From the IMG/VR virus record IMGVR_UViG_2974796119_000001, positions 14,834 to 78,833 of that record: DNA of 64,000 nucleotides, one strand, 5' to 3'. Below are positions 32,745 to 60,768 of this stretch, piece after piece (position 1 is the stretch's first letter; the number at the start of each line of letters is the position of its first letter). Both the position numbers and the translations under genes were made by a program. The notes under the pieces are model-generated. The model made no database searches and was not told the origin of the DNA. It saw nothing but the letters and a program-made list of their open reading frames with translations. The stretch comes from a virus. Its lineage: Duplodnaviria > Caudoviricetes.

Positions 32745-33056
32745 ATGGTAAAAGAGTACAAGCAGCAATTAAAAGATCACATTACAGCCTTAGAAAAAGG
32801 ATATGATAACTTAATATTAATTCTAAAGGAAGATGTAGAAAAAGATGATGAAGGTAAAATAGCACTAAAAGATGATAAGATAAAAAGTTATGCTGATGGT
32901 ATTCTTAAAGCAGCACAAGCTTCAGATGATTTTTTATTAAGAATTAAAACTAAAAAAACAGAACTTGAAGAATTAGAAAACGAAGGTGAACCTATTCCTA
33001 AAGAAAAAGATAAACCTAAAAACAGCCAGAACCCTATAAATAAACGCTTACAATAA
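32745..33056 (+). CDS. putative terminase small subunit
   Basis: 103-aa helical protein overlapping the terL start. Confidence 0.5.
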   Translation: MVKEYKQQLKDHITALEKGYDNLILILKEDVEKDDEGKIALKDDKIKSYADGILKAAQASDDFLLRIKTKKTELEELENEGEPIPKEKDKPKNSQNPINKRLQ

Positions 33057-35326
33057 TGGATAAAAGTTATAGAGACAGAATAGGTAAAAAGATTAATATT
33101 TCTGACATTGTTCCGTTAGACGTTTACAAAACAAAAAATGAAAAAAAATCATGGGAGTATAGAGAATACCCTCAGTACAATATAAACTTTATATGTATTT
33201 CTAAAGATGGTACTTTAGGTGAAATATGGAAAGTAGGTGATTTGTTTATTGGTCTTCCTTCTGTAGAGGGTAAAGAAATTATAAACGCAGGTAAACCCCC
33301 AAAAGAATCAAAATGGGTTAGAGAAAAACCACCAGTAGAGTTTCGTAAATTATGGTTTAAGTACAAGAGCGAAATGGGAGAAACACATCAATCAAAATCA
33401 CCTGAAGTTCGTAAGCGTTTTGTTCAGGAGAGAAATGAATTAATAACTAAAAATATTGATTTTGTAAATGGTGAATTTGACAAAAGAGAATATGGTTTAT
33501 TTATAAAAATTGATGAAGAAGTTCACTACTTCACAGGTGAATATTGGATGTTCTTATCACACTATTACCTTACTGAATCTAATATGTATGGTTTCTTTAG
33601 AACCGTAGCTATGGAAGCATTATGGCATTGGGAAGCTTGTAAAGCAGATACTAGAGTATGGGGAGAAATTAGAGGAAAAGGACGTAGAACAAGTTGGAGT
33701 GTTGAAAGTTCTAGTATGGCCCTAAATGCTTTTACAATTACAAAATTCGCTAAAATACCTATTGTTTCAGAACGTAGTCAATTAGCAAAAGAACTATTTC
33801 AAGGTAAAATTGTAAGCTCATTTGAGTATTATCCTATTTATTTTAAGCCTTTAATTAATTTACCCAATAGTAGTGTTTCTAGTAATTTAACAGTAGAATT
33901 TGAAACAGACGAAGCTGAAAGATCAGTTATAAATCATTATCCAACAAAAACAACAGCATACGATTCAACAAAGGTTAAAAACATATCGATTAATGATGAA
34001 ATTGGTAAATGGGAAAACGAATCTTTAATAGATTTTATATCAAGACACTCAAGATGCCATACGGAAGGAGGTGCTACCGGAAGATTTGGAAGTACTGCCG
34101 GAGAGTATGCAAACGGTGGAGGTGAGGAATTTGAGATTGAATTTATGTCAGCTAACGCAAATGAAAGAAATGCTTTAGGTAGAACAAAAAATGGTTTAGT
34201 ATCATTCTTTATAGATGTTTGCTACACCATGACACAACCAGTAAGTTACTTTGATGAATGGGGTTATTCTATAGTTAACGACCCAATTGAGCCAATAATT
34301 AATGAGCAGGGTAAATTAATATCTATTGGAGCTGTAACAGATTGGCAAATAGTACATGATGATTTAAAGAAAAGTGGTAAAAAGAAAGCTTATAATTCTT
34401 TTTTAAGAGATATGCCAAGAACATTAAACCACATGTTCACTAACGAAGGAGGTACAAATAATGATTTTGATATTAATAATTTAAACGAACATGAAAACTA
34501 CCTTAAAAGTATTCCTAGCATTGAAATTAATGAAAAGATATTTAGAGGTAATTTAATTTTTGCAGGAGAAAAATTTAATTCACCTGTAATATGGAGGCCT
34601 AATGACAATGGTAGAATACAAACAACCTGGCTACCGGAAGAAGCATTACAAAACCAATCATATACTAAAGATTTTTATGGCAAAAAATTAAAGTTCCCAT
34701 CAAATAACCATATTGGCTGTTTTGGAGTAGATAGTTATGATATATCTAAAACAGTTGACGATAATGGTTCAAACGGAGCAGTTGTGGGTTATAGTAAGTT
34801 CAATATGGCGGGCGCACCGTCAAATTCATTTTTTTTAAAATACCTACATAGACCAGATAAACGTGATGATTTTTATGACGATACAATTTGCATGCTTCAA
34901 TACTTCTCAATGTTTGCTTTGGTAGAAAATAACAAGCCAAGACTTTTAGAGTACATGAAAGACTACGGCTATAGAGGTTATTCAATGACTAGACCTGATA
35001 AAAAATGGAAAGATTTATCAGATTTCGAAAAAGAGCATGGAGGAATCCCCGCTTCAGCACAGACAAATAAAGATTGTGCTAGTTTACACAAAGATTACAT
35101 ACTGGATTTTATAGGTCAAAACGTGGAAAAAGAATGTAATTGTTACTTTATAGACATGATTCAAGAATGGAAAAAATTCGATGTAAACAAACGTAAGAAA
35201 TTTGATTTAACCGTTGCAGGAGAATTAGCATTAATGGGCAGTCAATATAAAGTCAAACAAAGAAAGTCTTTAAATATTGGAGTTAATAATCGCACGAGTT
35301 TTTCGTTTAGCGACTTTGGAGCCTAA
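33056..35326 (+). CDS. terL: terminase large subunit
   Basis: Walker A-like KGRRTSWS, Walker B ISINDE, nuclease GVDSYD and FDLTVA. Confidence 0.9.
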   Translation: MDKSYRDRIGKKINISDIVPLDVYKTKNEKKSWEYREYPQYNINFICISKDGTLGEIWKVGDLFIGLPSVEGKEIINAGKPPKESKWVREKPPVEFRKLWFKYKSEMGETHQSKSPEVRKRFVQERNELITKNIDFVNGEFDKREYGLFIKIDEEVHYFTGEYWMFLSHYYLTESNMYGFFRTVAMEALWHWEACKADTRVWGEIRGKGRRTSWSVESSSMALNAFTITKFAKIPIVSERSQLAKELFQGKIVSSFEYYPIYFKPLINLPNSSVSSNLTVEFETDEAERSVINHYPTKTTAYDSTKVKNISINDEIGKWENESLIDFISRHSRCHTEGGATGRFGSTAGEYANGGGEEFEIEFMSANANERNALGRTKNGLVSFFIDVCYTMTQPVSYFDEWGYSIVNDPIEPIINEQGKLISIGAVTDWQIVHDDLKKSGKKKAYNSFLRDMPRTLNHMFTNEGGTNNDFDINNLNEHENYLKSIPSIEINEKIFRGNLIFAGEKFNSPVIWRPNDNGRIQTTWLPEEALQNQSYTKDFYGKKLKFPSNNHIGCFGVDSYDISKTVDDNGSNGAVVGYSKFNMAGAPSNSFFLKYLHRPDKRDDFYDDTICMLQYFSMFALVENNKPRLLEYMKDYGYRGYSMTRPDKKWKDLSDFEKEHGGIPASAQTNKDCASLHKDYILDFIGQNVEKECNCYFIDMIQEWKKFDVNKRKKFDLTVAGELALMGSQYKVKQRKSLNIGVNNRTSFSFSDFGA

Positions 35327-54607: not shown

Positions 54608-54892
54608 ATGGATAAGAAGCAAACACCAACTGAGATTAAAGCACAAGCAAAAGCAAAAGAGTTAGTGCTTAAATACAATAGATTAGTATATCCATATTTC
54701 GGAAGTAGTATGCTAACTAATGAAACAGATGAAGGCGTTATACTACATAACTCTAAAGAATGTTCCTTGATACTATGCGATCAAATGATAGAGACTTTAA
54801 GTTCAATGAAGGGAATGGCAAGAATAAGTAAAAATACTTTCTGGAAACGTGTTAAAGAAATTTTAGAAGATGGCGACAATAAAGAAGTGTAA
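54608..54892 (+). CDS. hypothetical protein
   Basis: similar pattern to 4870-5079. Confidence 0.7.
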   Translation: MDKKQTPTEIKAQAKAKELVLKYNRLVYPYFGSSMLTNETDEGVILHNSKECSLILCDQMIETLSSMKGMARISKNTFWKRVKEILEDGDNKEV

Positions 54893-55616
54893 AGGTCAAG
54901 GCAAAGCTAAATCGTATGGCTGTGGGGTTGAATTACCTTATTCAGAAAACAATGGCTTAAAAACGTATAAAGCGAAGTATGGGCTTGGTTTAGATTGCAA
55001 GTGTTATTATACATGGCTTTACAGTTCTGAGGAAGGTTCTAAAATAGTTTCGTCTTTAGCTTTAAAAGCAAAAAAGGAAGTTGCTGAAAAATCTAAAAAG
55101 GAGGATAGTGAAAGGATGCAGAAAATGAAAATAGATTCTATGTCTCCAGATAAATATAGAGCTAAATATGTTCAGCCTTTAATTAACAAAATAGCACGTT
55201 ATATAGACCATGGTAACCCATGTACTCCTACCGGTAATTATGAGGGTAAAATGGCGGGGGGCCATTATACAAGTGTTGGAGCGAACAGAACTATTTGTTT
55301 GAATCTACATAATATTTTCATACAGAGTTTTGCTTCTAATAGTTGGAAAGGCGGTGATGATAAAAAATACAGAGCTGCTTTAGAAAGAATATTCGGACTA
55401 AAGTATCTTGAATTTGTGGAGGGATTAAATTCACATAGGTCAATTCAGCTAAGGAAGCCTCAACTAATTGAAATAAAAGAAAAGGCCGAGAAAATAGCAC
55501 TTCATTTAAAGAAAAATTTACAAGTATTAAGTTCAGAACAAAGAATAGAAGTTCGAAATACTATAAATGTAGAATTAGGAATTTATGACGAAGGGTATTG
55601 TCAGTTTATAAAATAA
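54870..55616 (+). CDS. NinG/Rap-like protein with N-terminal Cys domain
   Basis: QPLINKIARYID.G.PC...GGHY.SVGA...LHNIFIQ. Confidence 0.7.
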   Translation: MATIKKCKGQGKAKSYGCGVELPYSENNGLKTYKAKYGLGLDCKCYYTWLYSSEEGSKIVSSLALKAKKEVAEKSKKEDSERMQKMKIDSMSPDKYRAKYVQPLINKIARYIDHGNPCTPTGNYEGKMAGGHYTSVGANRTICLNLHNIFIQSFASNSWKGGDDKKYRAALERIFGLKYLEFVEGLNSHRSIQLRKPQLIEIKEKAEKIALHLKKNLQVLSSEQRIEVRNTINVELGIYDEGYCQFIK

Positions 55617-55629
55617 AACAACTATAATC

Positions 55630-56142
55630 ATGTACAAGGAAATATTTAAGAGTGGGCTAAACGATAAGTCTTTAGCAGCTGCAGGAGAATATGCTTTAGT
55701 AAAGGTTATGTACGGTGTTAATCATAGAGAAAAAATAAGACAAATATTTGAGCTTTATAATGAAAAAGGTATTATTCTAAAAGAATCAAATGAAAAAAGT
55801 GATGTTTTAGAGTATTTCAAAAAACCAAATAACACTTATGACTTGATTAAAGAATCTCTTAAAATAAAACCTATTGTTAAAGTTCCTACAGCAGAACTAC
55901 ATATTATTCATAAAGACGGTTCCATAGATATTAAGCATTACCCTACTAAAAGTGATTCATACGATGGTTCCAAAATAAACAATCTTTACATAAACGATGA
56001 AGTGGGTCATTGGTCCGATCCTAAATTAGCTAATCTACCTTCTTTTGGTGTAGGATGGACAGCAAACCCTAAATACGTATCAGGAATAGACCCATACGAT
56101 ATAAACGATGAAGAGTCTAAAGGAAGTTTAAAATATAAATAA
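55630..56142 (+). CDS. mini-protein containing terminase Walker B and nuclease motif fragments
   Basis: aa 101-128 are 16/28 identical to TerL aa 292-319; GIDPYDI...GS resembles TerL GVDSYDI...GS. Confidence 0.75.
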   Translation: MYKEIFKSGLNDKSLAAAGEYALVKVMYGVNHREKIRQIFELYNEKGIILKESNEKSDVLEYFKKPNNTYDLIKESLKIKPIVKVPTAELHIIHKDGSIDIKHYPTKSDSYDGSKINNLYINDEVGHWSDPKLANLPSFGVGWTANPKYVSGIDPYDINDEESKGSLKYK

Positions 56143-56144
56143 TA

Positions 56145-56297
56145 ATGGCAGTACCGGAAGAATACCTTTACTATCCAAACGGACAAAAGAAAGCTGTACT
56201 AGTTCATATTTTACGAGACTCAGAATGTCCTTGTACCTGGGAAGAAGATGGTAATCACTTCACAGATGGAATTAAAATTTATAAAAGATTAGGATAA
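56145..56297 (+). CDS. 50-aa ORF missing from the ORF track
   Basis: MAVPEEYLYYPNGQKK...; stop overlaps the next ATG. Confidence 0.6.
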   Translation: MAVPEEYLYYPNGQKKAVLVHILRDSECPCTWEEDGNHFTDGIKIYKRLG

Positions 56298-56680
56298 TGG
56301 GAAAATTTTATAAACAAAAAAAAATTGTTATTCCAATTTACGGACAGGATATGTATTTCATAGATACTAACGATTGTGATAAATTAAATAATACACACGC
56401 TACAGAGGAAGAGAAAGAACCTTATGCGGTAGCACTTACTTTATATAAATATAAAAACGGTGACAGCAACGCTTACTATGCTATTGTGTTAAATACTAAA
56501 AGTTCACACGGAAAACCCAGTATTGGAGTTCTAGCGCATGAATGTTTACATATAGTAAATATGATTTCACATAATCTTGGTATGAAACCAGATTTCAAAA
56601 ACGATGAACCTCAAGCTTATTTATTAGATTATTTAGTAGATAAAGCAATGAAGTTTTATTATCCAAAAACATTAATATAA
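56297..56680 (+). CDS. small zincin metallopeptidase
   Basis: LAHECLH...DEPQAYL. Confidence 0.75.
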   Translation: MGKFYKQKKIVIPIYGQDMYFIDTNDCDKLNNTHATEEEKEPYAVALTLYKYKNGDSNAYYAIVLNTKSSHGKPSIGVLAHECLHIVNMISHNLGMKPDFKNDEPQAYLLDYLVDKAMKFYYPKTLI

Positions 56681-56825: not shown

Positions 56826-57113
56826 ATGAATAACGAATTATTTGATTTTTCACAAGACATGACAAAAGAACAATCTTTAGAACAAAACGTAAAATGCGAC
56901 AAGCAGTTAAGAGTTAATTTAGATGATGAATTACAAAGATTAAAAGGCTTGACTCCATCAAGAGAACGTTCTTTAGCTATTACAAACTTACAACAGTCTA
57001 TTATGTGGTTAGGAATGGATTTAAAACGATTAAATGAAGCAACACCTTATCCTGATAGCTATAAGCCAGAGAACACTAAAATAGCACCAACAGCAGACGA
57101 ACTTAAACTATAA
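56826..57113 (+). CDS. Acb2/Tad1-like helical-hairpin protein (putative signal sponge)
   Basis: PSRERSLAITNLQQSIMWL. Confidence 0.6.
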   Translation: MNNELFDFSQDMTKEQSLEQNVKCDKQLRVNLDDELQRLKGLTPSRERSLAITNLQQSIMWLGMDLKRLNEATPYPDSYKPENTKIAPTADELKL

Positions 57114-57130
57114 ACTAAATATAAATAATT

Positions 57131-57397
57131 ATGGAATTAGTAAATTTTGGAGAAGCGATTAAAGCTCTTAAAGAAGGTAAACGTGTACAACGTCAAGGAT
57201 GGAATGGTAAAGGAATGTATCTTTATTTAGTTAAAGGACAAAGCTTTCCTTCATTAACAGAACACGCTAAAAAAGAGTTTGGAGAAAACACACCTTACAG
57301 ACCTTACATGGCTTTAAAAACAGCCCAAAACGATATAGCAACATGGTCACCAAGTGGTAGCGATGCTTTAGCTGACGACTGGATAGTATTAGATTAA
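57131..57397 (+). CDS. tad2: DUF2829/Tad2 family anti-defence sponge
   Basis: NFGEAIKALKEGKRVQRQGWNGKGMYL...WSPSGSDALADDW. Confidence 0.85.
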   Translation: MELVNFGEAIKALKEGKRVQRQGWNGKGMYLYLVKGQSFPSLTEHAKKEFGENTPYRPYMALKTAQNDIATWSPSGSDALADDWIVLD

Positions 57398-57425
57398 TTA
57401 AATTATTAAATAAAAAACAATAATC

Positions 57426-57965
57426 ATGACGAAAGCAACCAAAAAAACAGAAGTAAAAAAAGTAATTGAACAATCTAAACCAGGTACTCCAATGCCTGCT
57501 TTTGAAAAATTCACTAGAAAAGGTGTTTCAGAAATGAGGCCTTATGTTTTAGGTGAGGACTTAACCGGTGTTTCAGTATCTAAAGAAGATAACCCTGAAA
57601 AAGATATGGGTATGATAGCTAGAAACCCAAAAAATCATAAAGACCAATGGTATGTAGCTAAAGCTTATTTTGATGAAAACCTACAACCTGAAGAAGTAGA
57701 TGCTTCTAAATTAGCAGAAAAATCAGCAACAGAACCTAATTTTTACGATAGATTATTAATCGAAAAAGAACAGTTAGAAGAAAAAACAGTAGGTCTTAAA
57801 ACTTTTATTGACTCAAATCCTGTTTACGGAAAGTTAGATCAAGTTCAAAAAAACTTAATGCTTATACAGCTCAAATCAATGAAGCAATACCTTGACTGCT
57901 TAGACAGAAGAGAAATGATGTTAAGACCTGCAGTAGAAGAAACCCTGCCAACACAAGAGGATTAG
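57426..57965 (+). CDS. two-domain protein: small beta domain plus crAss001_48-like helical hairpin
   Basis: MIARNPKNHKDQWYV; FYDRLLIEKEQLEEK...QLKSMKQYLDCLDRR. Confidence 0.6.
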   Translation: MTKATKKTEVKKVIEQSKPGTPMPAFEKFTRKGVSEMRPYVLGEDLTGVSVSKEDNPEKDMGMIARNPKNHKDQWYVAKAYFDENLQPEEVDASKLAEKSATEPNFYDRLLIEKEQLEEKTVGLKTFIDSNPVYGKLDQVQKNLMLIQLKSMKQYLDCLDRREMMLRPAVEETLPTQED

Positions 57966-60285: not shown

Positions 60286-60768
60286 TTATTTATGGTATTT
60301 AGATTTGTTATCAAGAATATCTATTGTAGGTTTTTTAATAACAGGAATATTATTCCATCCTGCTATTCTTCGTTTACCAAAGCTATAACCCTGAGCCTCT
60401 TGGTATTCAACCATGGCCTTATTAATATCTTTTCTATTCTGAGGTGTTAAGTAAGGATTGTCAAACGGACCAAATACACCTTGCTTTTCTGAAATTGATG
60501 TTATATCGTTCCATGCTTTTTCTATATCTTTAAATGATATGTCACGTAAAGGTGTTGGAGATTCTGCAACTGCTTTTTCTAATTGAGCAAATAAACCGCC
60601 AGTACATACAAAGCCATCTTTATCTGTTTCTGTATTTTCGTGGCAAGGTGTTTTAAATACAACAGGTGTTTTATTAATTTTAGCTAGTAAAAAAACTTTA
60701 CCAACACATGAAGGTTTACCAATATGCGCTGCTATTCCTATGTGTTTTAATTTTTTATTTATTGCCAT
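60286..60768 (-). CDS. hypothetical protein with major-capsid-like motifs
   Basis: TGGLFAQLE...I...W and FGKRRI versus capsid TQGLFDNLE...I...W and FGKKRI. Confidence 0.6.
   Translation of the reverse strand: MAINKKLKHIGIAAHIGKPSCVGKVFLLAKINKTPVVFKTPCHENTETDKDGFVCTGGLFAQLEKAVAESPTPLRDISFKDIEKAWNDITSISEKQGVFGPFDNPYLTPQNRKDINKAMVEYQEAQGYSFGKRRIAGWNNIPVIKKPTIDILDNKSKYHK

Follow-up and report, generated by a model that had tools for sequence, protein, structure and literature searches.

Gene content of the locus

The window, a 64,000-nucleotide stretch of phage DNA, carries a small gene whose product is 100% identical to UniProt entry A0A8E4ZL12, which is listed as uncharacterised and comes from Tenacibaculum phage Gundel_1; the window belongs to this marine phage. 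Gundel_1 is a podovirus of 78.5 kb from the family Pachyviridae, and both the phage and its host, Tenacibaculum sp. AHE14PA/AHE15PA, are in culture (PMC8776804). The open reading frame is intact over its 170 codons, as the original prediction had it. The features relevant to the analysis are the following:

55630..56142, + strand: mosaic open reading frame of 170 aa (hereafter, the ORF)
55630..55767, + strand: module A (aa 1-46), an N-terminal helix, pLDDT 73-90 over aa 1-40
55846..55917, + strand: module B (aa 73-96), probably copied from the KP-I segment of the large terminase (TerL aa 263-274)
55930..56013, + strand: module C (aa 101-128), copied from the stretch of TerL that ends in Walker B
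56083..56130, + strand: module D (aa 152-167), which reproduces in shortened form the beta-hairpin of the nuclease with the first catalytic Asp
33056..35326, + strand: large terminase (TerL), 756 aa, the template; Walker B block at 33929-34012, nuclease motif at 34724-34777
54870..55616, + strand: ninG, which marks the slot that holds seven of the 11 members of the family
56145..56680, + strand: two genes that separate the ORF from the sponge genes, one of 50 aa and one of 127 aa with an HExxH motif
56826..57965, + strand: Acb2/Tad1-hairpin, Tad2-like and crAss001_48 (PF21825, Sequestin) genes, a cluster of nucleotide-signal sponges

The template was identified as a large terminase by its match to phrog_6681 (E 1e-81). 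In the predicted structure, its nuclease folds like the T4/RB49 gp17 nuclease (Foldseek probability 1.0, but E 6e-3) and residues 554-580 form a beta-hairpin with the first nuclease Asp, while the ATPase core is left unresolved by AlphaFold (pLDDT <50).

The ORF lies about 20 kb from terL, among accessory and anti-defence genes. The original prediction placed it immediately before the Acb2/Tad1-like and Tad2 genes; in fact, two genes intervene, a distance of about 680 bp. A scan for sigma-70 promoters gave results at chance level. The first of the intervening genes (50 aa, 56145-56297) is conserved (30-82%) in six related loci, and has no family match. The second (127 aa, 56297-56680) has a conserved HExxH motif, belongs to phrog_1365, lies beside sponge genes in loci L001, L005, L018 and L025, and probably encodes a small zinc protease. 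The ninG homologues of the slot (window 54870-55616, L001, L009 and L018) have similar N-terminal halves and different C-terminal halves, a pattern that suggests domain swapping. A 160-aa ORF found at 60286-60768 was considered as a capsid mimic and discarded, as 115 of 500 shuffles matched its score; a homologue of this ORF occurs in L018 (39% over 76 aa).

Match of the ORF to the terminase of the same phage

Residues 79-138 of the ORF align with residues 263-329 of TerL (E 1.2e-9). The score of the match is 118, a value reached by none of 1000 shuffles (maximum 60). The block singled out in the original prediction, aa 101-128 against TerL aa 292-319, has exactly 16 identities in 28 positions, Walker B included, and the match runs further upstream than that block, from aa 79. 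D123 and E124 of the ORF thus correspond to D314 and E315 of TerL, while a His takes the place of the TerL-invariant Lys318. No other small ORF of Gundel_1 matches a core protein as well (1e-10); the runner-up is a diffuse match (3e-5) to a 2482-aa protein.

The nuclease motif required a more cautious treatment. The reported spacings are correct (24 aa between the motifs in the ORF and 238 aa in TerL), and the motif lies at aa 152 as claimed, with D154 equivalent to D559 of TerL. The match to the phage's own TerL is by itself at chance level (125 of 1000 shuffles) and becomes credible when homologues are included: in profile-profile alignment with hhalign, module D matches the TerL family with probability 63 and a pairwise E of 7e-5. 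Using the same kind of alignment, modules B and C together match TerL with probability 94 and E 9e-8. Module B alone is not significant (E 0.03) and shows no enrichment in the ranking by block profiles described below, so its status as a copy of TerL is probable on the strength of the joint alignment with module C. A further candidate, resemblance of aa 14-36 to the C-terminal helix of TerL, was attributed to chance (106 of 1000 shuffles). Module A has no match in TerL (E 0.5 against the TerL profile).

Comparison with 84 TerL sequences revealed that the two catalytic pieces differ in their relatedness to the terminase of Gundel_1. Module C scores 106 against its own TerL and 67 against the next, hence it tracks the motor of its own lineage. 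Module D is generic: the phage's own TerL is only rank 17 of 84, and the module resembles the TerL family at large.

At the DNA level, the ORF has diverged from terL, with 53 of 84 nucleotides identical over the Walker B block. By codon position, the identities are 20, 24 and 9 of 28 for the first, second and third positions, all of them biased upward since the block was picked for similarity, and the third position is near saturation. This distribution indicates that module C is an old copy, itself constrained as protein. The view that the gene is not the scar of a recent duplication is upheld.

A family of small proteins with variable sets of terminase pieces

Searches for homologues yielded a family of 11 members of 62-170 aa: the Gundel_1 ORF and ten others of 62-169 aa, one of which comes from a Tenacibaculum genome, in a region that resembles a phage. 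Seven of the 11 lie no more than two genes from ninG. A segment of about 28 aa of module A, which starts the sole confidently predicted helix, is common to all of them. The remainder of each protein is a varying set of TerL pieces drawn from B (TerL aa 263-274, weak), C (292-322) and D (554-580). The arrangements are as follows:

A-B-C-D: Gundel_1, P0002 and P0003
A-C-D: P0004
A-D, without C: P0007, P0012 and P0014
Little beyond A-B, with little or none of C and D: P0005 and P0006
A-C, in-frame TAA, then D: P0010 (L011:2365-2880)
D, short C, A, possible third-Asp-like helix: P0011 (L007:549-977)

Modules have thus been gained and lost within the family, and on one occasion reordered. The reordered member, P0011, occupies the same slot; the ninG that precedes it is 82% identical to that of Gundel_1, and the order of its modules (nuclease motif, Walker B, helix) is not one that plain decay through deletion can give. 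In P0010, the part downstream of the TAA has its own ATG, an arrangement that admits more than one explanation: a pseudogene, an assembly error or a two-part version of the gene. P0004 (L006:2264-8315) has other surroundings: a Cpn60 gene lies opposite to it, and an Acb3 gene is found at a distance of 5.5 kb.

The closest relative of TerL that could be found (52%) belongs to G001, where the slot is kept and the gene is absent; the gene can therefore be considered accessory. The 50-aa gene is among those conserved in G001. Sponge genes or other anti-defence genes occur within about 6 kb of the family member in the window and in L001, L005, L006, L010 and L018, although they are not adjacent to it, and Cpn10/Cpn60 genes are found near two members. 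A gene for an Rv2179c-like 3'-5' exonuclease follows the small gene in three loci (in L011, after two small ORFs) and is also present in the same region of G001; the Gundel_1 slot lacks it. These exonuclease genes are:

L005:10447-11334
L010:10267-11199
L011:2996-3907
L018:10196-10987
L110:12757-13635

Other searches were negative. Longer (fused) forms were not detected at E 0.001, which is weak evidence. Pattern scans of IMG/VR, JGI metagenomes and GTDB provided no additional members, and their sole match, L024, turned out to be a chance antisense match. None was found in 401 Bacteroidia genomes, and GenBank phages other than Gundel_1 itself contributed no further members. A search of the ESM Atlas gave no usable match, and comparison with a viral structure library retrieved the ORF itself only. 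Module A is single-copy in the Gundel_1 genome, and the idea that it might be a tag common to many mini-proteins of the phage was consequently rejected. In the course of these searches, a crAss-like-looking terL broken into three ORFs in translation table 11 was found in a 97.7-kb record (G002, L109:999-3038); a TAG lies inside the match, which is probably a case of stop-codon recoding.

Retention of catalytic residues and selection

Block profiles built from the 84 TerL sequences were run on the members and on 636 other ORFs. Relevant observations can be listed as follows:

(i). With the Walker B block, members occupied ranks 1-5 and 10. The Asp-Glu pair equivalent to D314/E315 is kept in 5 of 5 members that have module C, while the TerL-invariant K318 is replaced in every case within the family.

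(ii). With the nuclease block, members were found at ranks 1, 2, 4, 5 and 6; the sequence at rank 7 was the second half of P0010, separated from the first by the stop. The equivalents of G557, D559 and Y561 are kept in 9 of 9.

(iii). With the Walker A block, no member was above rank 98 of 647.

(iv). Two members show a weak resemblance to terminases in searches of the 38,880 PHROGs: the TerL family is the sole match of P0004, at motif D (weak, E 0.14), and of P0011 (weak, E 0.06). A possible third-Asp-like stretch was seen in P0011 only (PHROG E 0.06, block rank 43).

Conservation within the family follows conservation in TerL (Spearman 0.32, p 0.015), a correlation that is indicative only, as the sequences are related.

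Values of dN/dS lie between 0.33 and 0.74 in seven of eight pairs of members, and reach 0.88 in the poorly aligned pair P1/P7. For module A, dN/dS is about 0.3 and pN is lower than pS in 45 of 45 pairs. Module D has a dN/dS of 0.35 in P7/P14. In P1/P2, the closest full pair, the values are 0.8 for module C and about 1.1 for module D, on few changes. Homologues of the ORF thus exist, and most of them are intact and under purifying selection.

Predicted fold and catalytic capacity

The confident part of the structural model is limited to the helix of module A. Residues 46-170 are mostly below pLDDT 50, on a shallow alignment of ten sequences; beyond the helix, this admittedly weak test yields a two-strand hairpin of low confidence and nothing like a 4-6-stranded sheet. 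The ORF has no match among PHROGs, and the Pfam TerL_ATPase model gives 14.9 bits, under the cut-off of 23.7. A search for an RNase-H nuclease domain with its three acids detected only the hairpin with the first Asp. Without a Walker A, an ATPase sheet or a nuclease fold, the protein cannot package or cut DNA, and the prediction that it would be non-catalytic holds. By the features tested, it is neither a terminase nor a domain of the vs.8/Ksap type.

Possible roles of the ORF

The observations above describe a family of mini-proteins with terminase motifs that is real, selected and previously uncharacterised. Bacteria rely on terminase as one of the main signatures of a tailed phage, which they detect with Avs1-3 and Upx. 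To our knowledge, host sensors are the known readers of terminase active sites, and a phage cannot change these sites. The ORF product is probably a molecular mimic, and its most plausible role is that of a decoy. Our preferred reading, to which we give somewhat less than an even chance, is that an accessory gene under selection, part of which originated from the TerL of its own lineage, encodes a non-enzymatic helix with flexible active-site peptides that acts as decoy for terminase sensors.

The mechanism might operate as follows. A helical scaffold private to the family, module A, would carry a flexible string made of the Walker B segment and the catalytic hairpin of the nuclease. If these residues are retained without catalysis, they may be retained for recognition. 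Made in infection before or alongside TerL, the protein would occupy a host sensor (Upx-like or Avs-like) that reads opened active-site strands; since the decoy would lack a full ATP-bound ATPase surface, the sensor would not be triggered. Abortive immunity would be blunted in this manner, as DSAD1 does for DSR2.

Certain properties of known sensors make a string of motifs a suitable bait. EcAvs2 has been reported to hold a nuclease helix pulled from its fold, and Upx has been modelled to thread disengaged, unfolded strands of the ATPase core; both are thus reported or modelled to bind unfolded terminase elements (PMC13601566). The residues retained in the family are the catalytic acids that terminase sensors reportedly approach. 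In the host class Bacteroidia, Avs2 and Avs1 are present but were rare in the sample: of 301 genomes, 2 exceeded the cut-off for Avs2 and 1 for Avs1. A 1264-aa gene beside an Avs1 operon was considered as a candidate Upx of Bacteroidia and rejected, as it encodes a secreted repeat protein.

Other observations are difficult to accommodate in the decoy reading. The universal part of the family is a helix unrelated to TerL, the TerL pieces are lost piecemeal, one copy has an in-frame stop, selection on the motifs is weak in P1/P2, and G001 does without the gene. Avs sensors have also been described as enveloping folded cores (PMC13581612). Furthermore, the terminase-like proteins vs.8 and Ksap1/2 activate Avs2 (PMC13601566), so that a mimic might trigger the sensor instead of blocking it.

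The main rival explanation is that the helix of module A does the work, and that the TerL pieces are what is left of an old terminase duplicate or of captured fragments, a loosely constrained tail in the process of being trimmed. The fact that module A alone is both universal and confidently folded fits this view, as do the variable loss or truncation of C and D, the copy split by a stop, the dN/dS near 1 for C and D in P1/P2, and the B-C-D order, colinear with TerL in most members. However, what survives of the 756 residues of TerL is grouped around the catalytic acids of the two domains, the 238 aa between them having been removed, and the catalytic residues are invariant in the family. The excess of identity at second over third codon positions (24 versus 9 of 28), the constraint on module D in P7/P14 and the reordering in P0011 are also at odds with mere trimming. 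We consider this explanation unlikely.

Another possibility is that the peptides act on the packaging motor, either swapping into the contacts of TerL, TerS or the portal or competing with them, and thereby time the phage's own packaging or poison co-infecting relatives. It is a general principle that fragments of a protein can be dominant negatives, and module C is closer to its own TerL than to any of 83 others. Nevertheless, the copied residues are presumably the buried catalytic ones, and we know of no assembly surface of TerL to which they belong. In addition, an inhibitor resembling the owner's motor would harm the owner, module D is not self-like, and the gene is located far from terL, with accessory and anti-defence genes around it, and is missing from G001. 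All this makes an action on packaging improbable.

A small chance can also be given to mimicry of TerL towards some other host factor that recognises it when nascent or unfolded (a protease, a chaperone or an undescribed sensor), or to a small protein that binds metal or nucleotides and has put the acidic motifs to use in a new fold, because all three catalytic acids are kept and both nucleotide sponges and, in two cases, Cpn10/Cpn60 genes are found nearby; but no fold is predicted for aa 46-170, and the independent retention of C or D by different members argues against one shared site.

Returning to the terminase-sensor decoy, an attractive speculation is that phages stitch active-site peptides of essential proteins onto a carrier helix and shuffle them as modules, the family described here being a decoy made of terminase epitopes, able to jam the sensors that read unfolded TerL. 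In this general form the proposal is possible but rather doubtful. If true, a decoy built from active sites would be a counter-strategy undescribed in the literature searched, and the residues kept in it would map what the sensor reads. The idea is directly testable: Gundel_1 and its host are in culture (PMC8776804), co-expression assays for terminase sensors are established in E. coli (PMC13601566), and the natural module-deletion variants could serve as controls.

Comparison with known systems

The source of modules B (probably), C and D is a large terminase of the Pachyviridae type (phrog_6681). The equivalents of D314, E315 and D559 are kept, whereas the ORF retains only about 70 of 756 residues and lacks the coupling region and the second and third nuclease acids.

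No motif-mosaic mimic of terminase was found in the literature searched. The nearest parallels are vs.8 of T4 and Ksap1/Ksap2, non-terminase activators of Avs2 that resemble the terminase ATPase and for which an anti-defence role has been speculated upon by the authors of their description (PMC13601566). Like them, the ORF encodes a lineage-restricted small phage protein resembling the TerL ATPase, and vs.8 shares with it sequence homology to the TerL of its own phage. However, vs.8 and the Ksap proteins are folded beta-sheet domains (with Walker A and B in the case of vs.8) that activate Avs2, while the ORF has neither a Walker A nor a predicted sheet. Further differences are its nuclease motif, its private helix and the variation of its family in the content and order of modules.

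A parallel of a different kind is DSAD1 of SPbeta, which has been proven to target DSR2 (PMC11263360). The likeness concerns the proposed logic: a phage protein would sit in the sensor pocket of a phage trigger, the tail tube protein in the case of DSR2, and cause no activation. As in trigger competitors of the DSAD1 kind, the gene is accessory, selected and near anti-defence genes, in six loci and without adjacency. Unlike DSAD1, the Gundel_1 ORF is made up of pieces that can be recognised as parts of the trigger itself.
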